Origin: Candidatus Curtissbacteria bacterium | GTDB lineage: Bacteria; Patescibacteriota; Microgenomatia; Curtissbacterales; GWA2-41-24 | Assembly (NCBI GenBank): GCA_030647775.1 | Contig: JAUSJC010000010.1 | Span: 433,334-497,333 of the forward strand | DNA: 64,000 nucleotides | Direction of reading: 5' to 3' | Shown: positions 8,692 to 59,506 of the stretch, in pieces | Position numbering within the stretch: the stretch's first letter is position 1 | How the letters are laid out: the number at the start of each line of letters is the position of its first letter | The notes under the pieces: generated by a model | What the model saw: the letters and a program-made list of their open reading frames with translations, nothing else | Databases searched by the model: none | Told to the model about the DNA's origin: nothing | Program-made: the position numbers and the translations under genes

Positions 8692-9804
8692 ATGTCCTAT
8701 CAACCCAAAGTAGCATTAGTACATGATGATTTCGTCCAGCAAGGCGGAGCGGAAAATCTGTTTGCCGAGATCGCCCAAATCTATCCAAATGCCCCAATTT
8801 ATACATCACTGGTCGATTGGAATAAACCGCCTATGGGAATAGACCGAAATAGGGTCCGACCCTCTTTTATGCAGAGAATCCCCTTTGCCGCAAAATTTTA
8901 TAAATTACTTTTGTCTCTCTACCCTTTGGCATTTGAAAGTTTCAATCTTTCCGCCTTTGACGTGGTTATTTCATCAACCACCCGTTTTGCCAAAGGCGTT
9001 GTAACCCCGCCAGATACGATCCATATTTGTTACCTAAACTCCATTCCCAGGTTTCTTTGGCATACCGACCATAAGAAAAGTTATTTGCCGTCCTCTCTCG
9101 AATCTATTTTTCGGCCCATCATAAATTGGCTAAAGCGCTGGGATATGGCTGCTGCTTCACGGGTAGATTTTTTTATTGCCAACTCCCAAAATGTTAAAAC
9201 CCAAATCAAAAAAGTCTATAACCGAAATTCCCAAGTTATCTATCCATTTGCCGATACAGATTTTTTTAAGCCCCCCAAAATTCATAACTGGAGACTGAAG
9301 AGTCAAAAATATTATCTTATTGTTTCGCGCCTGGTTCGCTGGAAGAAAATCGAAATCGCCATTCGTGCCGCCAATAATTTAGGAATCAACCTTTTTGTTA
9401 TTGGTGAAGGGCCGGACAGGAGTCGACTGAAGCACTTTGCGGGGAAGAGCACTAAATTTATAGGCAAAATTTCAAAAGAGGAGCTGCGTCAACTCTATCA
9501 AAACGCCCAAGCGCTAATTGTTACCCAAGAAGAAGATTTTGGTATAGTAACTGTTGAGGCTCAAGCATGTGGCCTTCCTGTTATTGCTTATGACCATGGC
9601 GGCCAAAAAGAAATTATCAAAAATGGCCTTACTGGTTTATTTTTCCCCTCGCAAAGCACCAAGGCTCTGGAAGATGCAATTAATGCGTCAAGTGCGGTAA
9701 AATGGAATTTAGCCGAAATTGTAAAGAACGGTCAAAGGTTCTCAAAGAAACAGTTTGTCAAAAATTTAAAAGCGAAAGTAAAAGAGTATGCCAGCCAAAA
9801 ATAA
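8692..9804 (+). CDS. GT4-family glycosyltransferase
   Basis: KVALVHDDFVQQGGAE N-terminus and the EEDFGIVTVEAQACGLPVIAYDHGG (E-x7-E) motif; start moved to 8692 to avoid overlapping the integrase. Confidence 0.8.
   Translation: MSYQPKVALVHDDFVQQGGAENLFAEIAQIYPNAPIYTSLVDWNKPPMGIDRNRVRPSFMQRIPFAAKFYKLLLSLYPLAFESFNLSAFDVVISSTTRFAKGVVTPPDTIHICYLNSIPRFLWHTDHKKSYLPSSLESIFRPIINWLKRWDMAAASRVDFFIANSQNVKTQIKKVYNRNSQVIYPFADTDFFKPPKIHNWRLKSQKYYLIVSRLVRWKKIEIAIRAANNLGINLFVIGEGPDRSRLKHFAGKSTKFIGKISKEELRQLYQNAQALIVTQEEDFGIVTVEAQACGLPVIAYDHGGQKEIIKNGLTGLFFPSQSTKALEDAINASSAVKWNLAEIVKNGQRFSKKQFVKNLKAKVKEYASQK
8850..8863. repeat. copy of the 15-bp REP-like quasi-palindrome TAGGGTC[C/G]GACCCT(A), in frame inside the GT4 gene (encodes NRVRPS)
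   Basis: exact core GGGTCCGACCC. Confidence 0.7.
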
Positions 9805-40698: not shown

Positions 40699-41016
40699 CT
40701 CTATATTTTAATCCTGAGCGAAGTCGAAGGACCTCCTCCCTTAACACAAACTGTCATCCTGAACTCGATTGCAAATTTATGAGTAATAAGCTCTCTTATT
40801 CAGGATCTGGTGTTGGTTCAGGATCTTTTTTAGATTCCGGATCAGGTCCGGAATGACGATGAGGTGCGGGTTGCAAACAGCCTCAGATTATGTTGTTTAG
40901 GGAGTGCTATTGAAACAACGATTTCAATAGCTTTCGTACTAACATCCGGACGAAGTCGGAATAAATTCGCGCACGATAATTACTTCCTCGGTGACTGTTG
41001 CAAATAGGGTTGTATT
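40699..41016. repeat. ftsA-ftsZ intergenic region (318 bp) composed largely of fragments of the palindromic element family (ATCCTGAGCGAAGTCGAAGGAC; GTCATCCTGAACTCGATT; TTCAGGATC x2; CCGGATCAGGTCCGG; TCCGGACGAAGTCGGA; hairpin CTATTGAAA...TTTCAATAG)
   Basis: motifs read directly; the same motifs recur at 42140, 45459, 52532, 53388, 55070 and 58939. Confidence 0.65.
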
Positions 41017-45458: not shown

Positions 45459-45507
45459 TGTCATCCCGAACTTGTTTCGGGATCTAAATCCTCTAAATCG
45501 GGATTTA
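45459..45507. repeat. two adjacent hairpins (GTCATCCCGAA-cttgt-TTCGGGATC; TAAATCC-tctaaatcg-GGATTTA) between convergent yjjX-like and GIY-YIG genes; the first supplies the last codons and stop of the GIY-YIG gene
   Basis: palindromes read directly. Confidence 0.65.
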
Positions 45508-45757
45508 CGCTCTTTATCAAATTTATTTTCCAATCTCTGTGCCAATTTTTTAATTGTTTTTCTCGAGCAATAGCTTCCTTGGCCTGACTATACTGTTCTA
45601 GATAGATAAGTTTTTTTAATTTATATTTCTTTGTAAACCCGTCAACAAATTCGTTTCTGTGCTCGTAAACCCTACGAGTCAAATCATTTGTGACGCCGAT
45701 GTAAAAAGTAGTGTTATGGAAATTAGTTAGGATATAGACAAAATAATTTTTTGTCAT
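45461..45757 (-). CDS. GIY-YIG nuclease-domain protein (UPF0213/YhbQ-like)
   Basis: YFVYILTNFHNTTFYIGVTNDLTRRVYEH contains GIY...YIG and the conserved Arg and Glu; the last about 9 codons and the stop come from a palindromic repeat element. Confidence 0.8.
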   Translation of the reverse strand: MTKNYFVYILTNFHNTTFYIGVTNDLTRRVYEHRNEFVDGFTKKYKLKKLIYLEQYSQAKEAIAREKQLKNWHRDWKINLIKSVNPDLEDLDPETSSG

Positions 45758-46367
45758 GAGCTATTATATACAGATGCTGAAGCGAGTTCAGCATGACAAA
45801 TTAATGGACGAACAAAAACTCCTTGACGAAATTGCCGAAGAGATAGAAAAGTGCAAAACCTGTAAAGTTGGTAAAACAGGCAAGCCTGTTCCCGGTGAGG
45901 GCGATCCAAACGCCGAAATTGTTTTTATCGGTGAAGCACCGGGCCGGACGGAAGGGGAGACAGGTCGGCCGTTTATCGGCCGTTCCGGCCAGTATTTAAC
46001 AAAACTGATCGAGTCAATCGGCTTGAACCGAAGCGACGTTTTTATTACCAGCCCCGTTAAATATTTCCCAATTAAATCCGGCAAAGGCAGGGCGCCGACC
46101 GACGCCGAAATTGCCCACGGAAGGAAGCATTTATTAAAACAACTAGTAATAATCGATCCAAAACTCATCATCCTTCTAGGAAAAGTTGCCTCAAAAGCCA
46201 TCCTAAAAAAAGATATACTAGTATACTTGGACCATGGAAAGCTCTTGAGAGAAAATGGCAGGACATATTTCATCACCTATCACCCCGCCGCCGCCATCCG
46301 TTTCCAGAAATTTAAGGCTTTAATAGAACAAGACTTCAAACTGCTCAAACGGTTAATAAAAAAGTAG
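45756..46367 (+). CDS. family-4 uracil-DNA glycosylase
   Basis: CxxC N-terminus; GEAPGRTEGETGRPFIGRSGQ motif. Confidence 0.85.
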   Translation: MSYYIQMLKRVQHDKLMDEQKLLDEIAEEIEKCKTCKVGKTGKPVPGEGDPNAEIVFIGEAPGRTEGETGRPFIGRSGQYLTKLIESIGLNRSDVFITSPVKYFPIKSGKGRAPTDAEIAHGRKHLLKQLVIIDPKLIILLGKVASKAILKKDILVYLDHGKLLRENGRTYFITYHPAAAIRFQKFKALIEQDFKLLKRLIKK

Positions 46368-47732: not shown

Positions 47733-47747
47733 TAGGGTCCGACCCTA
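47733..47747. repeat. REP-like 15-mer TAGGGTCCGACCCTA immediately upstream of the RAYT gene (overlaps its ATG)
   Basis: perfect quasi-palindrome with a C centre. Confidence 0.8.
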
Positions 47748-47904
47748 TGCCGGCTAAAAATTCTATTAAACAATTCGTAGAAAACGGAATCTATCACCTT
47801 TACAACAGGGGAGTGGAGAAACGGAATATATTCCTTGACGAGCAAGATTATTCGGTTTTTCTTGGTTACATCAAGCAGTACCTAGATGACACAGAGCCTG
47901 ATAC

Positions 47905-47919
47905 AGGGTCGGACCCTAA
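47905..47919. repeat. REP-like 15-mer (G-centre orientation) inside the RAYT gene, in frame (TGSDP)
   Basis: CAGGGTCGGACCCTA. Confidence 0.75.
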
Positions 47920-48173
47920 ATCATTAGCAGGTGAGATAGATCTTCTGGCCTTTTGTCTTATGCCGAACCATTTTCATTTTCTGGTTAAACAGACCACAAA
48001 AGATGGTATCACTAAGTTTATAAGGGCAGTGTGCACAAATTACGTCATGTATTTCAATAAGAAATACGACAGGGTCGGCACTTTATTTCAAGGCAAATAT
48101 AAAGGGCTTTTAATCGATAACGATGTTTATCTTTTGCATCTTTCTCGCTATATTCACCTCAACCCTCTTAAAA

Positions 48174-48188
48174 TAGGGTCCGACCCTA
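48174..48188. repeat. REP-like 15-mer (C-centre) inside the RAYT gene, in frame (IGSDP)
   Basis: TAGGGTCCGACCCTA. Confidence 0.75.
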
Positions 48189-48407
48189 AACAAAGCTATT
48201 CTAGTTACAGTTATTACCTCGGCAGAAAGCAGGCTAAATGGTTAAAGCCTGATACGGTCCTTGACTTTTTTAGAACAGCCAGCAAAACTAGCTTAACAGA
48301 TTATTTATCCTACGAAAGCTTTGTAGATGATTATGTTGAAGAGCCCGGAACGGTCATCGAGGATCTGACTCTTGAAGACGAGAGCGAAGATTAGGATAAA
48401 TTAGTAA

Positions 48408-50449: not shown

Positions 50450-53383
50450 ATGGCAAAACAGCAAAAATTTAAGCCCGTTGACCCAAAACAGGATTTTGTG
50501 GCGATGGAGAAAAAGCTTTTGGACTACTGGTACAAAGAGGGGATAGTCGAAAAATATCTCAAGAAAAACCGAAGTTCCAAAAAGAAATTCTCATTCCTCG
50601 ACGGCCCGATAACCGCCAACAACCCAATGGGCATCCACCACGCATGGGGAAGGACTTACAAGGATCTTTGGCAGCGTTTTTACAATATGCAGGGTTACGC
50701 CGGCCGTTTCCAAAACGGTTTTGACGAGCAAGGTCTTTGGGTCGAAGTCGAAGTCGAAAAAGAGCTGGGTTTTAAAAATAAAAAAGATATCGAAAAATTT
50801 GGAATCGACAAGTTCGTTAATCTTTGCAAAGAACGTGTCAAAAAATTCTCGCGCGTTCAAACCGAGCAAAGCAAACGCTTGGGTTACTTTATGGACTGGG
50901 AAAATTCCTATCACACCTCTTCTGACGAAAATAACTATGCCATCTGGAATTTCCTGAAAGTTTGTAATCAAAAAGGATATTTATATAAAGGCCGCGATTC
51001 CGTGCCCTGGTGCCCCCGTTGCGGCACGGCCATTTCCCAGCACGAAATCTTAACAGAAGAATACAAAGAAATAACCCACGATTCGATCTACTTCAAACTA
51101 CCTCTTATCGACCAGCCACACAAGTATCTTCTAGTATGGACAACCACACCCTGGACCATTCCCGGGAATGTTGCTGTAACCGTCGACCCTAAAGAAACCT
51201 ATACCGAATATCCCATTAGCAGTAACGAATATGTTTTAGTAATGAAAAAGGCCGTTGAGAGGCTAATAAAAGAAAAAGTATTAGAAAGAACTACCGCAAT
51301 AATAACGGATGAGGTTCTGGGGGCATCACTCCTCGACAAAAAATATATTGCCCCATTTGACGATTTTGAAGGAGTAAAGAAATCTCTAGATGGTTACGTA
51401 CATAAAGTCGTAGCAAGTGATGAGCAAATATTACCTATCTCGTCAGAAGAGGGAACAGGGATTATTCACCTTGCTCCGGGCGCAGGGGCAGAAGATTTTG
51501 CTATTTCAAAAAAAGAGAACTTACCAGTAGTCGAGCTAATCGATGAAGAAGCGAATTACCTTTCCGGCTTAGGCAAATTTTCTGGCCAAAGTGCTAAAGA
51601 CCATCCGGAATTAATCACGTCTTATTTAAAAGAAAAAGACAAGGGAAACTTTTTGCTCACAGTCCAACCTTACACTCATCGTTACCCGACTTGCTGGCGC
51701 TGCAAAACAGAACTGGTTTGGCGAGTCGTCGATGAATGGTATATCGCCATGGACCGTAAAGATCCCGATGACAAGAAGGGTCGGACCCTACGCCAGGAAA
51801 TGGTCGATGTCGCCAAAAAGATCACGTGGATTCCAAAGTTTGGCTTGGGAAGAGAGCTCGACTGGCTTAAAAATATGCACGACTGGCTGATTTCCAAAGA
51901 AAGATACTGGGGGTTGGCGCTGCCAATTTGGGAATGCACCAAGTGCGGCAGCTTTGAAGTCATTGGATCAAAAGAAGAACTAAAAGAGAGAGCTGTAGCC
52001 GGCTGGGACGGGTTTGAGGGGCAGTCTCCCCACAGGCCTCAAATTGACGAAATAAAAATAAAATGTTCCAAGTGCGCTGAAACAGTGACCAGAATTAAAG
52101 CGGTCGGCAATGTTTGGCTGGATGCCGGCATCGTGCCTTTTTCTACCATGTCCCAAGACTGGTTTCCGGCGGATTTCATTACCGAATCTTTTCCCGGCCA
52201 GTTTAAAAACTGGTTTTATAGCTTAATTGCCATGTCCACGGTTTTGAAAAATGAAAATTCTTTTAAAACCGTTTTAGGCTTCGCCACACTACTGGACGAA
52301 AAAGGCGAGGAGATGCACAAGTCGAAAGGTAACGCCATCGAATTCAACGAAGCCGCCGACAAAATCGGCGTCGACGTCATGCGTTGGATGTACGCAAAGC
52401 AAAACCCCGTTAATAATCTTTTATTTGGTTATCATGTTGCAGATGAAGTCCGAAGACGCTTTTATTTAATTCTTTGGAATGTTTATTCATTTTTCGTAAC
52501 CTACGCCAATCTAAACGACTTTTCTCTTCCCCGTCATTCTGGGGAGCGAAGCGACTCCAGAATCGATTCTGGACAAGTCCTTCGACTTCGCTCAGGACCT
52601 CAGGACCGTGAGTTTACCGAATCGGCCAGAGTGACAAAGAATGCCCTCGATAACTGGATAATCTCCCGACTAAACTCAACTATAAAAATGGTTACCGATT
52701 CGCTTACCAAATACGATGCTCAAATTGCCTCTACCGCCATTGAAGATTTTGTCATCGGCGATCTTTCTACCTGGTACATAAGAAGAAGCAGGGACAGGGT
52801 AGAGGAGGCGCTGCCTACGATCTACGATATTCTAGTCACGCTCTCAAAATTACTTTCACCATTCACGCCCTTTATCGCCGAAGAAATATATATGAATTTG
52901 GTAGAGGAGCAGTCCGTAAACCTTGCCGACTTCCCTACTTCCAACGCAAAACTCATTGATAAAAATCTCGAAGACCAAATGGCAATTGCACGGACTATTG
53001 TTGAAAAAGCCCATTCGGCAAGAAAAGAAGCCGGCATCAAAGTCCGCCAGCCGCTTGCATCTCTAACTTACGGTGAAGAAAAACTTCCCGAGCAAATCGA
53101 GAAAATAATCGCTGACGAAGTTAATGTTAAAGAAGTAATTACCAAAAAGGGATCAAAAATTACTCTCGATACTAAATTCACTCCGGCGCTAGTTGCAGAG
53201 GGTCAAGCCCGCGAGATAATCCGCAGTATCCAGCAGGCCAGAAAAGATGCCGGCTGTGATCTTGCCGAAAAAGTTACGGTGACACTCCCCGATTGGCCCA
53301 AGGAATTTGAGGAAGAAATTAAAAAGCAAACATTAACGTCGAAACTTGTTAAAGGCAAGAAGCTTGAAATCATTAGGTCTTAA
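50450..53383 (+). CDS. ileS: isoleucine--tRNA ligase (type 2-like) with a degenerate HIGH region and an in-frame repeat-derived insertion
   Basis: GFDEQGLWVEVEVEKELGF (compare IleRS GWDCHGLPIE), DWLISKERYWGLALPIWEC, KMSKS as HKSKGN; about 30-aa Ser/Arg-rich insertion at 52532-52610. Confidence 0.8.
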   Translation: MAKQQKFKPVDPKQDFVAMEKKLLDYWYKEGIVEKYLKKNRSSKKKFSFLDGPITANNPMGIHHAWGRTYKDLWQRFYNMQGYAGRFQNGFDEQGLWVEVEVEKELGFKNKKDIEKFGIDKFVNLCKERVKKFSRVQTEQSKRLGYFMDWENSYHTSSDENNYAIWNFLKVCNQKGYLYKGRDSVPWCPRCGTAISQHEILTEEYKEITHDSIYFKLPLIDQPHKYLLVWTTTPWTIPGNVAVTVDPKETYTEYPISSNEYVLVMKKAVERLIKEKVLERTTAIITDEVLGASLLDKKYIAPFDDFEGVKKSLDGYVHKVVASDEQILPISSEEGTGIIHLAPGAGAEDFAISKKENLPVVELIDEEANYLSGLGKFSGQSAKDHPELITSYLKEKDKGNFLLTVQPYTHRYPTCWRCKTELVWRVVDEWYIAMDRKDPDDKKGRTLRQEMVDVAKKITWIPKFGLGRELDWLKNMHDWLISKERYWGLALPIWECTKCGSFEVIGSKEELKERAVAGWDGFEGQSPHRPQIDEIKIKCSKCAETVTRIKAVGNVWLDAGIVPFSTMSQDWFPADFITESFPGQFKNWFYSLIAMSTVLKNENSFKTVLGFATLLDEKGEEMHKSKGNAIEFNEAADKIGVDVMRWMYAKQNPVNNLLFGYHVADEVRRRFYLILWNVYSFFVTYANLNDFSLPRHSGERSDSRIDSGQVLRLRSGPQDREFTESARVTKNALDNWIISRLNSTIKMVTDSLTKYDAQIASTAIEDFVIGDLSTWYIRRSRDRVEEALPTIYDILVTLSKLLSPFTPFIAEEIYMNLVEEQSVNLADFPTSNAKLIDKNLEDQMAIARTIVEKAHSARKEAGIKVRQPLASLTYGEEKLPEQIEKIIADEVNVKEVITKKGSKITLDTKFTPALVAEGQAREIIRSIQQARKDAGCDLAEKVTVTLPDWPKEFEEEIKKQTLTSKLVKGKKLEIIRS
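51777..51790. repeat. REP-like 15-mer inside ileS, in frame (KKGRTLRQ)
   Basis: AGGGTCGGACCCTA. Confidence 0.7.
52532..52610. repeat. palindromic element (GTCATTCTGGGGAGCGAAGCGACTCCAGAATCGATTCTGGACAAGTCCTTCGACTTCGCTCAGGACCTCAGGACC) inserted in frame in ileS
   Basis: shares the core CCTTCGACTTCGCTCAGGA with intergenic copies; encodes RHSGERSDSRIDSGQVLRLRSGPQDRE. Confidence 0.7.
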
Positions 53384-53525
53384 ACTGGTCATCCGAACTC
53401 GTCTCGGCATCTAGATCCTGAAACAAGTTCAGGATGACGCTAAGATTGCTTCGCGGAGTTTACCCCGACCTGAACAGATCCTTCGCTTCGCTCAGGATGA
53501 CAGGGAGGGGCGCGCAATGACATAA
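53384..53525. repeat. ileS-SEDS intergenic cluster of palindromic elements (GTCATCCGAAC...GATCCTGAA-acaag-TTCAGGATGAC; GATCCTTCGCTTCGCTCAGGATGACAG; CGCAATGAC)
   Basis: read directly. Confidence 0.65.
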
Positions 53526-54999: not shown

Positions 55000-55130
55000 G
55001 CGTCATGCCGAACTCTAGCCCCGAGCGAAGCGAGGGCGCATGGCACTGTATATTTCGGCATCTTTTTAGATCCTGAATCAAGCCTTCGAGGCCGTGAGCC
55101 CTCAGGCCGAATCGGTTCAGGATGACAAAG
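55000..55130. repeat. rplU-rpmA intergenic cluster of palindromic elements (GTCATGCCGAA...TTCGGCATC including the CCGAGCGAAGCGAGGGCGCATGGCACTGTAT motif; GATCCTGAATC...GGTTCAGGATGAC)
   Basis: read directly. Confidence 0.65.
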
Positions 55131-56988: not shown

Positions 56989-58185
56989 ATGGAGTTTATT
57001 AAATTACTTTTAATTGTCACTTTCTTAACACTCATCCCCGGCCAGGTTTTAAGGATTCCTCCGGATTCCTCATTTGGGGCCATAACCTTGACCGATATCA
57101 GCGTTTTGGTGCTTGATTTCTCTTTTCTTTTCTATTCGCTGGCCATTAAAAAATCGCTTAAATTTCCGCCAAAAATATTTTTCCCGTTTGCCATTTTTTC
57201 TGTCTGGTCTCTTGCCACGATCATTTGGGCAGCAAGGTTGCTTTCTGCCGGCGAAATTTTGATCTCCTCACTTTTTTTGGTGCGGTTTATCATTTATTTT
57301 TTTCTCGCGGTTATCGCGTTCAATATTGTTGAAAAAGATAAAATCAGGCGCTGGATAGAATTAATCCTTACGATCGGCGTCATTTATATCTTAATTGGGT
57401 TTGTCCAGTTTTTCACCATACCCGACCTTTCGTTTTTAACGCCTTTTGGCTGGGATCCGCACCAAAGAAGAATTGTCTCAACAGTTATCGACCCGAATTT
57501 TTCCGGATTTATTTTTGTTTTGCTTTTCTCGATGGCAACCTCTTTTTATTTTTACTCGGCAAAAAAGCTGCCGTATTTTATTATCGCCCTCGGTTCTTTT
57601 ATCGCCCTGATTCTTACTTTTTCCAGAAGTTCTTATCTGGCATTCATTGCGGCCATTGTCGTAATCGGAATTGTTAAATCAAGGAAATTGCTACTGGGGA
57701 CTCTTCTAGTCCTTCTTTTGATATTTACAATTGTCCCTCAAGTTAGAACAAGGGTTGTTGGCGCGTTGACTCTCGATGAAACAGCCCAGGCAAGGATCGA
57801 AAGCTGGCAAAATGCCCTTACCGTAACCCGTGACAACCCGTTTTTTGGTGTTGGTTTTAATACTTACCGTTTTACCCAGGAAAGGTACAATTTTTTCGCG
57901 AGCGATAATCCCGAAGGCGGCCATTCCGGCGGGGGAGTAGATTCCAGCCTTCTTTTGGTAAGTGCCACAACCGGCATTATCGGCCTTGCACTTTTTATTT
58001 TCTTTTTGGGATCAATTGTTAAAGCTGCCGCGAAAAATGTAAGCGCAAGTCCTCTTCACTTGGCAACGCTGGCGTCGGCAGCTGCACTTCTCGTGCATTC
58101 AATATTTGTAAACTCGCTTTTTTTCCCGCAAATTATGCTTTTAATTTTCCCGCTAGTCGGCCTAGCCGCAAAGGATGATAAATAA
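56989..58185 (+). CDS. O-antigen ligase-like (Wzy_C) polytopic membrane protein
   Basis: multiple TM helices; TFSRSSYLAFIAAIV region typical of the O-antigen ligase family. Confidence 0.6.
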   Translation: MEFIKLLLIVTFLTLIPGQVLRIPPDSSFGAITLTDISVLVLDFSFLFYSLAIKKSLKFPPKIFFPFAIFSVWSLATIIWAARLLSAGEILISSLFLVRFIIYFFLAVIAFNIVEKDKIRRWIELILTIGVIYILIGFVQFFTIPDLSFLTPFGWDPHQRRIVSTVIDPNFSGFIFVLLFSMATSFYFYSAKKLPYFIIALGSFIALILTFSRSSYLAFIAAIVVIGIVKSRKLLLGTLLVLLLIFTIVPQVRTRVVGALTLDETAQARIESWQNALTVTRDNPFFGVGFNTYRFTQERYNFFASDNPEGGHSGGGVDSSLLLVSATTGIIGLALFIFFLGSIVKAAAKNVSASPLHLATLASAAALLVHSIFVNSLFFPQIMLLIFPLVGLAAKDDK

Positions 58186-58240
58186 TATTTTCCATTTTAT
58201 CCGCCACCAAGTGAGGGGTGGCACCAGTGAAAGGGCTCAC

Positions 58241-58273
58241 GGCGGCGCACACCCCGCCCTTTTTGGAATCAAT
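58241..58273 (+). terminator. GC-rich hairpin GGCGG-cgcacacc-CCGCC followed by CTTTTT; candidate intrinsic terminator of the preceding gene
   Basis: 5-bp GC stem plus T5 tract, 56 nt after the stop at 58185. Confidence 0.35.
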
Positions 58274-58363
58274 CTCAATATCCGGAATTTTACTAGAACT
58301 CGAAAAGGGCTGGGGAGCACCGACGGGAGGGAAACTGGTGACAGGACCCCGAACAACAAAAAC

Positions 58364-59506
58364 ATGATACTTAAAATCTTTATCTTTTGGCGCATATCTC
58401 TGTTCGTACTGACATATCTTGGCTCGGTTATTTTCCCCAAAGTTGCCAATGGGGGAATTGGGGCAATCGGTCAGGGCAAAACTTTTGATTTCTTATCCTC
58501 TTGGGCCCAGTGGGACGGCGGCCATTTTATAAATATTGCCCGCCTTGGCTATTTTAATCCGCAGGAATACGCTTTTTTTCCGCTTCTGCCAAATTTAATT
58601 AGGTTTGTAACTATTTTTACTTTCGGAAATCTAGTCCTTGCCGGGTTAATTATCTCGAATGTTTCCTTTTTAGCGTTCCTAATCATTTTTCATAAATTGG
58701 TTAATAAAAAATTTGGCAGTCAGATTGCGAACATATCAGTTTTCACCTTTCTTACATTCCCATCGGCTTTTTTTGGAGTCGCCGTGTATTCCGAATCAAT
58801 CTTCCTGCTTCTTGCCGTACTCGCTCTATATTTTTTGGAAAGCAAAAGATTCTTATATGCGGCCCTCTGTGCGTCTCTTGCCGGCGCCACGAGGGTTGTG
58901 GGGGTTTTTCTTATTATTCCGTTCACAATATCTCTTCTGTCATTGCGAGGAGCCCTTCGACTTCGCTCAGGGCGACAAAGCAATCTCGAACAGATTGCTT
59001 CGCTCACTACGTTCGCTCGCAATGACATTGTTAAAGCGTTATTAATTCCCCTGTCGGTGTCCGGCCTGTTTTTGTATTCTCTTTATCTTTACCTGAAATT
59101 TGGCGACCCTTTTTATTTTTCAACCGTGGAATCTGTTTGGCACCGCTCCTTTGTTAATCCTTTCTCAACGATCTATTCTTATTTAACTATCAACGTTTTT
59201 GCCAAGCCGTTTAATGATTATCTTGATATTGCCGCTACCCTCGGATTTCTGGTAATTCTAGCCCTTGGCTTTAGGAAAATACCAAAATCGTGGTGGTTTT
59301 ATAGCCTTTTGGTTATCTTGGTTCCGGCCTCCACCGGAACCTTAACCAGCATGCCACGCTATGTTCTTTCGGCTTTTCCTGTTTTTATTTTGCTGGGGAT
59401 TTACCTAAAAGACAGGCAGATTTTGAGAATGATAACTTGGGGAATTTTTCTTGTCTTGCAAGTTGCTCTGGCTATTATGTTCGTCAATGGTTTTTGGACT
59501 GCCTAA
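58364..59506 (+). CDS. GT-C-fold membrane glycosyltransferase (PIG-V/mannosyltransferase-like) carrying an in-frame repeat insertion
   Basis: WAQWDGGHFINIARLGY resembles the PIG-V family motif; about 10 TM helices; start moved from 58175 because 58186-58363 is GC-rich, Gly/Arg-rich and lacks TM helices. Confidence 0.55.
   Translation: MILKIFIFWRISLFVLTYLGSVIFPKVANGGIGAIGQGKTFDFLSSWAQWDGGHFINIARLGYFNPQEYAFFPLLPNLIRFVTIFTFGNLVLAGLIISNVSFLAFLIIFHKLVNKKFGSQIANISVFTFLTFPSAFFGVAVYSESIFLLLAVLALYFLESKRFLYAALCASLAGATRVVGVFLIIPFTISLLSLRGALRLRSGRQSNLEQIASLTTFARNDIVKALLIPLSVSGLFLYSLYLYLKFGDPFYFSTVESVWHRSFVNPFSTIYSYLTINVFAKPFNDYLDIAATLGFLVILALGFRKIPKSWWFYSLLVILVPASTGTLTSMPRYVLSAFPVFILLGIYLKDRQILRMITWGIFLVLQVALAIMFVNGFWTA
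58939..59026. repeat. palindromic element with 11-bp terminal inverted repeats GTCATTGCGAG...CTCGCAATGAC and an internal hairpin AAGCAATCT-cgaac-AGATTGCTT, inserted in frame in the GT-C membrane protein gene
   Basis: contains the shared core CCCTTCGACTTCGCTCAGGG; encodes LRGALRLRSGRQSNLEQIASLTTFARNDI. Confidence 0.7.

Follow-up and report, generated by a model that had tools for sequence, protein, structure and literature searches.

The 64-kb stretch of Candidatus Curtissbacteria DNA analyzed here (hereafter the window) carries a gene for a PIG-V-like GT-C mannosyltransferase of 380 amino acids (aa; the protein starts MILKIF) at 58364–59506 on the plus strand, and inside this gene lies a palindromic element of 90 nucleotides (nt), or 30 codons (58938–59027, plus strand, tag bases TGTC...GACA included). 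An earlier sequence-only reading had taken the host gene for a GT-C membrane glycosyltransferase, which was upheld by a Pfam match (PF04188, PIG-V mannosyltransferase, E 1.8e-8) and by fold comparison: an AlphaFold2 (AF2) model built on 30 homologues reached a pLDDT of 90.2, and the protein was assigned a GT-C fold because its best matches among solved structures in the Protein Data Bank (PDB) were ALG12, ArnT, STT3/PglB, EmbC, GPI-MT-I, and PimE. The protein is also 100% identical to an NCBI protein annotated for a Candidatus Curtissbacteria metagenome-assembled genome. We consider the element likely to be a palindromic, non-autonomous repeat from the CGTC superfamily of repetitive extragenic palindromes (REPs), a hairpin dimer associated with Ssn (small GIY-YIG single-strand nucleases) and tolerated in a permissive loop of the enzyme.

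A heads-outward dimer of tagged hairpins

The element comprises two CGTC-type tagged hairpin units arranged heads outward. The left unit (58938–58987, plus strand) opens with the tag TGTC, followed by a 5-bp stem, ATTGC (58942–58946) pairing with GCAAT (58980–58984), and a 3-nt tail, CTC; its 33-nt loop houses a nested core, CCCTTCGACTTCGCTCAGGG (58953–58972, plus strand), which is itself a small hairpin module with the stem CCCT/AGGG around TCGACTTCGCTC. The right unit (58988–59027) reads TGTC ATTGC GAGCGAACGTAGTGAGCGAA GCAAT CTG on the minus strand, with a loop of 20 nt and the tail CTG. Inner stem halves and tails of both units together build a central hairpin, AAGCAATCT/AGATTGCTT (58978–59000, plus strand; arms 58978–58986 and 58992–59000), with the 9-bp stem reported in the sequence-only reading and a 5-nt loop. 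That reading had also described 11-bp terminal inverted repeats. A perfect inverted repeat is present, TGTCATTGCGAG/CTCGCAATGACA, but its arms (58938–58949 and 59016–59027, 66 nt apart) are 12 nt long, one base more on each side, and they consist of tag plus stem, being the ends of two inverted units of the REP type and not transposase-binding ends of the kind found on insertion sequences (IS).

By our own estimate, a 12-nt inverted repeat is unremarkable by itself (about 0.7 expected per 64 kb at spacings of up to 200 nt); the ensemble of inverted repeat, core, fold, and family recurrence is far beyond chance. The core, which the earlier reading had recognized as that of a repeat family, has three matches in the window at up to two mismatches against none in 100 shuffles, the other copies lying at 40712–40731 (minus strand) and 52578–52597 (plus strand), each with two mismatches. 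The 88-nt segment is predicted to fold as RNA at −37.3 kcal/mol (z = −5.5), and the two strands as single-stranded DNA (ssDNA) with z = −4.6 and −5.4, each fold being branched and combining side hairpins and the central hairpin with an outer stem of 12 bp. Rfam models gave only tRNAs and noise, both for the window as a whole (gathering thresholds) and for 58800–59150 with E relaxed to 10, the element having no match below E = 1.7. The GC content of the element is 53%, compared with 41% in the rest of the host gene. Published text matching its DNA strings or encoded peptides was limited to primers and unrelated passages.

CGTC REPs were defined in 2013 by Di Nocera, De Gregorio, and Rocco (BMC Genomics 14:522, PMC3733652) through a CGTC, TGTC, or CCTC tag, 8- to 9-bp stems starting with AT, loops of 4–5 nt, and a 3-nt tail with the consensus CCA. 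These repeats occur mostly as inverted (HH) dimers in five phyla, chiefly Alphaproteobacteria, and the superfamily takes in RPE-4 and RPE-6 of Rickettsia (RPE, Rickettsia palindromic element) and dRS3 of Neisseria. The element carries a tag of this type at both ends (TGTC at 58938–58941 and its complement GACA at 59024–59027), an AT stem start in both units (ATTGC.../...GCAAT), and 3-nt tails, and it is an inverted dimer of tagged units, a type repeated in the window, with no Y1 transposase gene within 4 kb of the 120 genome copies screened. Its loops exceed the 4–5 nt of the definition and its within-unit stems are shorter than 8–9 bp, canonical 8-bp versions occurring elsewhere in the window; an 8-bp stem, ATTGCGAG/CTCGCAAT, forms only between the two units. 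Judged by these features, the element is a non-canonical member of the CGTC-tagged REP superfamily.

Insertion and turnover in the glycosyltransferase loop

The sequence-only reading had proposed an ortholog alignment to decide whether the segment is an insertion or is conserved among homologues, and we carried this out. In the six orthologous loci compared (L001–L006), the neighborhood of a Wzy_C-like gene, the glycosyltransferase gene, and purD is kept, and syntenic orthologues carry a 13-aa loop, ESISFKxKNLNLK, where the window protein has the element-encoded segment. Four of these proteins (P0002, P0004, P0005, and P0008; 80–85% identity) read ...SYL-ESISFKxKNLNLK-xLAIP..., against ...SLL-[29 aa]-IVK-ALLIP in the window. 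The short loop of modal length is found in 83 of 116 full-length homologues, and repeat-derived loop sequence is confined to P0001, P0006, P0010, and P0011 and to the shorter or truncated P0003, P0007, and P0009. Because most orthologues keep a short loop free of the element, the element is an insertion and does not belong to the conserved protein; the condition under which the sequence-only reading would have been refuted did not hold. Some 10 residues of the ancestral loop were lost at the site, so that the insertion is not a clean one and the net gain is 19 aa (380 versus about 361 aa) rather than 29.

The same loop has been occupied in different ways in different relatives. In locus L001 (protein P0006), a 73-nt copy of the GCGAG type without the core (GTCATTGCGAG...CTCGCGATGAC) follows a retained ancestral-like RSIANSQL and shares its right junction (GAC/ATTGTT, the slash marking the boundary) with the window. 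In L003 (P0007, and likewise P0003 and P0009), only the left part is present (GTCATTGCGATCAGCC...AAGCAATCTC), with a left junction, TCTCTYCT/GTCATTGCGA, identical to that of the window. L004 and L005 (P0010 and P0011) carry a CTGG-type subfamily (GTCATTCTGG...CCAGAATGAC) with other junctions and in another reading frame. Since the same loop holds different relatives with different junctions and frames across orthologues, it acquired such repeats at least twice, and probably three times; a neighbor-joining tree of these sequences, which are 81–85% identical, has too little resolution to separate one from two events for the copies in the window, L003, and L001.

Within the host protein, the element spans the last base of codon 192 through codon 221 and leaves the reading frame intact, so that its translation, as SLRGALRLRSGRQSNLEQIASLTTFARND, is possible to judge from the frame. 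The encoded peptide of 29 aa contains five Arg and four Ser, has a mean hydropathy of −0.59, and is flanked by hydrophobic stretches at residues 163–192 and 222–244. The earlier description of a hydrophilic, Arg/Ser-rich, in-frame loop of about 29 aa between membrane helices therefore holds for length, composition, and frame, but in the AF2 model the segment prolongs the flanking helices and is not drawn as coil, with a pLDDT of 59–77, the least confident part of the protein. As to the membrane side that the loop faces, hydropathy and helix counts are ambiguous around residues 163–192.

It could be argued that the segment is selected for a function in the protein or the mRNA, for instance as an exapted regulatory loop or a structured RNA. 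The kept frame, the continuation of the neighboring helices through the segment, and the strong predicted RNA fold would fit such a role, as would the Arg-rich composition (positively charged loops are common in membrane proteins) and the occupation of the same loop by related elements in several lineages. Nevertheless, most orthologues do without the element, the family is mostly intergenic (an open reading frame, or ORF, spans 21 of the 126 copies described below), the frames used differ between genes, Rfam offered nothing below the E value given above, and model confidence is lowest precisely there; neutral divergence and free loss of the kind seen in L003 would also speak against a function. 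We regard a selected function as the least probable of the explanations considered, and a very remote one. The encoded peptide would instead be a tolerated passenger and not a functional module, and in-gene survivors would be those copies whose length with tags is a multiple of three, which are free of stops, and which lie in permissive surface loops. For annotation, this repeat family inflates and decorates proteins of the candidate phyla radiation (CPR), and the 29 residues should not be taken as a glycosyltransferase motif.

Two other length differences were seen at this locus. In P0008, a C-terminal loop is lengthened by 21 aa in a lineage-specific way (YFERKKNERKSEIHNHQSMYL, alignment columns 386–406), and this insertion is apparently not derived from CGTC-type repeats. 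Between the Wzy_C-like gene and the glycosyltransferase start, about 189 bp (58174–58362; GC 50% versus 41% in the glycosyltransferase gene) are missing from L002, L003, and L004, in which the wzy-like coding sequence runs directly into the glycosyltransferase start; this stretch is not a CGTC-type element.

Relatives in the window and across phyla

Canonical tagged hairpins are frequent in the window, with nine copies compared with 0.43 in Markov simulations. They have stems of 8–10 bp, a 5-nt loop in four cases, and a tail of the form CTN (CTA, CTG, or CTT); an example between ileS and ftsW (53412–53439, minus strand) reads CGTC ATCCTGAA cttgt TTCAGGAT CTA. Two CGTC-type hairpins lie in the ftsA-ftsZ spacer (40752–40858, comprising 40752–40809 on the plus and 40831–40858 on the minus strand), adjoining the core copy at 40712–40731, and a heads-outward CGTC-type dimer with expanded, hairpin-containing loops occupies the rplU-rpmA spacer (55001–55127). 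A sister of the element, a 105-nt dimer of the CGTC ATTCTGG type with the same core module, is located in frame in the isoleucyl-tRNA synthetase gene ileS (52532–52636, plus strand) and encodes RHSGERSDSRIDSGQVLRLRSGPQDREFTESARVT.

Two of these sites recapitulate the turnover seen in the glycosyltransferase. At the same codon position of ileS where the window has the CTGG-type dimer with the core, L004 is empty and L003 contains a different, fully canonical heterodimer (RHSRPDRESDPRIREDD; about 2140–2200 of that locus, CGTC ATTCTCGA cctga TCGAGAAT CAG ATCCTCGC attc GCGAGGAT GACA). The rplU-rpmA spacer holds unrelated dimers in the window and in L003 (4866–4975), the latter a ATTGCGAG dimer within the loop of another tagged hairpin (CGTC ATTCCAC ... 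GTGGAAT). Occupancy of the same sites thus differs among relatives, and three positions across Curtissbacteria (the glycosyltransferase loop, the IleRS loop, and the rplU-rpmA spacer) have been re-occupied, each with different subfamilies. In all five in-gene copies, the length from GTC to GAC is 1 modulo 3 and becomes a multiple of three with two tag bases.

To delimit the wider family, we scanned one genome per species with the exact pattern GTCATTGCGAG-N40-70-CTCGCAATGAC and obtained at least 120 matching stretches of genome, whose hosts belong to the Alpha-, Gamma-, and Deltaproteobacteria, Bacteroidota, Chloroflexi, Planctomycetota, Cyanobacteria, and Patescibacteria. The family figures given in this text refer to the matches listed, whose named hosts include Bradyrhizobium, Sphingomonadales, Pedobacter, Mucilaginibacter, Flavobacterium, and Microcoleus; they were drawn either from 124 relatives (248 halves) or from 126 copies, namely these 124 plus one copy each from the window and L003. 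The layout that they share, over and above the ends fixed by the pattern, is GTCATTGCGAG-[module]-GAAGCAAT-C(CA)-loop-GGATTGCTTC-[module]-CTCGCAATGAC. The inner, unselected positions are conserved, with GCAAT in 226 of the 248 halves, followed by C in 220 of those 226. The base before the pattern is C in 90 and T in 31 of the 126 copies and the base after it G in 85 and A in 36, and the CGTC/TGTC tag is therefore reproduced at both ends. The commonest module, CG[N]AGCGAA, forms with a preceding G a GCGNAGC mini-hairpin in which N is free, so that the usual loop reads GAG-CGNAGC-GAA. In the left unit of the element, the core replaces this mini-hairpin; its loop, TCGACTTCGCTC, has as its complement GAGCGAAGTCGA, which closely resembles the module usually present, GAGCGAAGCGAC. 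Heterodimers account for 77 of 103 dimers; the tail is CCA in 53 of 103 and CTC in 15, and the commonest form, CCAG, fits the tail CYRG of the Neisseria repeat NTS discussed below. Copies are mostly intergenic, and those in genes are translated in different frames in different genes; the 21 ORF-spanned copies (about one in six) have at least 60 aa of ORF on each side, several of these ORFs being 380–1050 aa long. Pairing of at least 3 nt between the flanks beyond the tag was weakly enriched (15 copies versus 6 expected). A general nesting of copies within other palindromes was considered on this basis and set aside, the enrichment being weak and clear cases few (L082, L108, and the copy at 4883 of L003, inside another CGTC hairpin).

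The combination of element and core is not restricted to the glycosyltransferase gene. A 32-mer spanning their junction recovered two further distinct sites from metagenomes (three loci, two of them identical), one in frame inside a cysteine-desulfurase-like gene in a different frame (VIARSPSTSLR...) and the other with a different right module. Because the composite recurs at other loci, it represents a propagated subfamily and not a local accident. Viral contigs were searched for an ssn-sized cassette with ATTGCGAG ends; both hits were arrays of repeat units without a gene, and the candidates were discarded. In one viral contig (IMG/VR, L146, 241–587), three left units belonging to the ATTGCGAG family, with expanded loops of 45–50 nt, form an array that continues with right units, and one frame is open throughout (CHCEERSG...SLRGAVWEGY...).

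Several traits of the element (perfect terminal inverted repeats, a small size, more than one copy, and presence in some orthologues but not in others) are also what a classical MITE (miniature inverted-repeat transposable element) would show, that is, an internally deleted IS whose 11- to 12-bp terminal inverted repeats are bound in trans by a DDE transposase. However, the window copy has no target-site duplication or direct repeat (flanks TCTTCT and ATTGTT), and no duplication was evident in the flanks of the 126 copies, judged overall and not copy by copy. Furthermore, the ends are a CGTC tag and the AT stem of REP-type hairpins, each half being a hairpin unit with a conserved tail; a search for IS, which was not exhaustive, met none with such ends in either the window or the loci; and Di Nocera et al. 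(PMC3733652) keep such repeats separate from MITEs. An IS-derived MITE is disfavored because target duplications are lacking, ends and tails are of the REP type, and no partner IS was seen, and we consider it very improbable.

A dimer of hairpins is likewise the architecture of REPINs, and a gene for a Y1_Tnp/REP-associated transposase-like protein lies 10.5 kb from the element (47747–48394, plus strand; PF01797, E 2.5e-9; NF047646, E 2.5e-10, below the cutoff of that model). This raises the question of whether the element is a REPIN moved by this Y1 (IS200-like) tyrosine transposase, which resembles the REP-associated tyrosine transposases (RAYTs). The Y1 gene, however, is bordered and peppered by a different palindrome, TAGGGTCSGACCCT, of which the window has eight copies against 0.31 expected; the tag of the element is TGTC (CGTC type) and not GTAG; and CGTC REPs are reported (PMC3733652) without an association with RAYTs and without a dedicated transposase. 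Mobilization by this Y1 transposase is therefore quite unlikely in our view. The TAGGGTCSGACCCT palindromes lie at 8852, 26928, 26982, 47735, 47906, 48176, 48412, and 51778, one of them inside ileS; those at 47735 and 48412 mark the two borders of the Y1 gene, which is interrupted twice. Together, the RAYT-like gene and its palindromes resemble a small REPtron that is distinct from the repeats of the CGTC type.

A candidate nuclease cassette and comparison with known systems

Since no transposase is known for CGTC REPs, one may ask by what route these repeats move and whether Ssn nucleases could be the agents. The window encodes a candidate cognate protein for CGTC-type hairpins, an Ssn-like single-domain GIY-YIG nuclease of 98 aa (45461–45757, minus strand; PF01541 only, E 3.7e-15). 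A tagged hairpin stands just upstream of the gene (45771–45798, minus strand; TGTC ATGCTGAA ctcgc TTCAGCAT CTG; ssDNA fold z = −4.1), and another, inverted, lies over its 3' end (45459–45486, plus strand; TGTC ATCCCGAA cttgt TTCGGGAT CTA; z = −4.5). The end of the downstream hairpin supplies the TGA stop codon (45461–45463; ...TTCGGGA-TGA-CA), so that the 3' end of the gene is set by the repeat. The two hairpins face outward, in the same heads-outward geometry as the element.

The predicted protein shares 46% identity over 85 aa (E 1e-28) with the SsnA orthologue of Neisseria gonorrhoeae, whose 94-aa ORF, located by tblastn against the plasmid collection PLSDB, is surrounded by 12 NTS copies. 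The PLSDB entries involved (NZ_CP119140.1 and NZ_CP119142.1; L142) are N. gonorrhoeae chromosomes of 2.17 Mb that the collection lists among its plasmids. No PDB entry was matched when the Ssn-like protein served as the sequence query. The hairpin-gene-hairpin layout was also found around homologues in Daviesbacteria and Levybacteria, and Planktothrix and Spirosoma homologues are flanked by TGTC, a 5-bp AT stem, and a GAGnGAAnCGA loop, which is the unit architecture of the element. In Daviesbacteria (L130–L135) and Levybacteria (L136–L141), the ssn-like gene (1501–1791) has a thymidylate synthase gene on one side and a dihydrofolate reductase gene on the other, in two different arrangements, and in L136 upstream half-units TGTCATCCTGAACTCATTCAT are in tandem repeats.

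Biochemical precedent comes from Chenal et al. (2025, Nat Commun 16:2388, PMC11893778), who show that SsnA of Neisseria meningitidis (cd10448), a 94-aa single-domain GIY-YIG nuclease, binds NTS (CGTCATTCCCGCGMAVGCGGGAATCYRG, which contains dRS3) only as ssDNA and nicks a few nucleotides 5' of the tag. In both Neisseria and Wolbachia, Ssn binds tagged hairpins solely in single-stranded form and cuts at a short distance, a few bases, 5' of the tag. Cutting by SsnA depends most on the three bases before the palindrome and binding most on the C directly after it, and changing the sequence of the Neisseria stem while keeping its structure abolishes activity. Ssn homologues occur in several phyla and are typically flanked by hairpins (PMC11893778).

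By analogy with MITEs and their IS, or REPINs and RAYT genes, the dimer may be the miniature, gene-less form of a hairpin-ssn-hairpin cassette, and its placement in the gene may have occurred by an ssDNA-based process that involves Ssn or depends on the nicks it makes. Several observations weigh against this part of our interpretation, and against a canonical assignment of the element. Its units are non-canonical in stem and loop length, and the predicted fold pairs the two tags with each other instead of leaving them single-stranded. The 64 kb hold a single copy of the ATTGCGAG type. Within 4 kb of 120 genome copies among the matches listed, neither an ssn-like (GIY-YIG) nor a Y1 gene was found. 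The degenerate pattern published for the Ssn-related motif (SRM), HGTCWYN(0-2)YYVSBRHN(0-5)WNVSBRGN(0-2)RNCYNB, has no match in the window (0.2 in simulations) and misses even the hairpins flanking the ssn-like gene; of its features, the element shows just two, the HGTCWY head and a C following the palindrome. The stems beside the ssn-like gene (ATGCTGAA and ATCCCGAA) also differ from those of the element and, as stem changes abolish SsnA activity in Neisseria, the window Ssn may not act on this subfamily. Finally, Ssn is a nuclease for which no transposition activity has been shown.

A bolder proposal is that CGTC dimers are the gene-less form of a selfish cassette that is active in CPR, that nicking of ssDNA by Ssn drives their copying into preferred sites, and that the re-occupied positions reflect homing or in-place replacement of one subfamily by another and not only selection for permissive loops. 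We regard this as speculative and rather unlikely. If true, orphan CGTC REPs, including the Rickettsia RPEs, would gain a mobilizing enzyme, and the occurrence of the same 11-mer end and inner GCAAT-C motif from Bradyrhizobium to Patescibacteria would be explained. In either case, the window offers a natural test case within 20 kb, with an Ssn-type gene and its own hairpins, canonical hairpins, and two translated dimers (in ileS and in the GT-C gene).

REP- and RPE-type palindromes translated within genes, the CGTC superfamily, and the Ssn nuclease family have all been published. To judge from the literature searched, what is new is the instance in Patescibacteria, the non-canonical ATTGC-stem subfamily with its nested module, the nearby candidate nuclease cassette, and the re-occupation of orthologous sites by different subfamilies. 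It contained no report of the CGTC superfamily with translated in-frame copies in Patescibacteria or CPR.

RPE-1, a Rickettsia palindromic element, occurs in frame in many protein-coding genes. It shares with the element a palindromic, selfish nature and in-frame translation in surface-exposed, permissive parts of proteins; it is longer, unrelated in sequence, and not known outside Rickettsia.

The element and the CGTC REPs described in PMC3733652 both have a (C/T)GTC tag, AT-starting stems, a 3-nt tail, a heads-outward dimer with a short spacer, a distribution over several phyla without a linked transposase, and in-frame dimers of 20–30 aa in enzymes and membrane proteins, the last already documented there for IleRS, PBP1C, and antiporter subunits. 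The Rickettsia conorii sequence SFLRKQES...DSRFRGND follows the same frame logic as SLRGA...FARND in the element. The element differs in its 5-bp stems (ATTGC/GCAAT) with long, structured loops, in its tails (CTC/CTG and not CCA), and in that its two tagged ends pair together, and its Patescibacteria/CPR host lies outside the five phyla reported there.

REPINs and RAYTs (Bertels and Rainey 2011) are comparable in that an inverted pair of hairpins forms a larger, non-autonomous hairpin and a single-copy cognate gene is flanked by the units. They use a GTAG tag and an HUH Y1 transposase, whereas the tag here is of the CGTC type and the candidate partner is a GIY-YIG nuclease; the RAYT-like gene of the window pairs with the TAGGGTCSGACCCT palindrome and not with the element. 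With the NTS/SRM-Ssn system, the window shares the HGTCWY head, the C directly after the hairpin, and a small single-domain GIY-YIG gene flanked by outward-facing tagged hairpins. It differs in that the SRM pattern matches no hairpin of the window, that the element's stems are unlike those of the local ssn gene, and that the CPR homologues are candidates identified from their sequence. Chenal et al. (PMC11893778) do not discuss intragenic, translated copies, which in the window are represented by the dimers in ileS and the glycosyltransferase gene.

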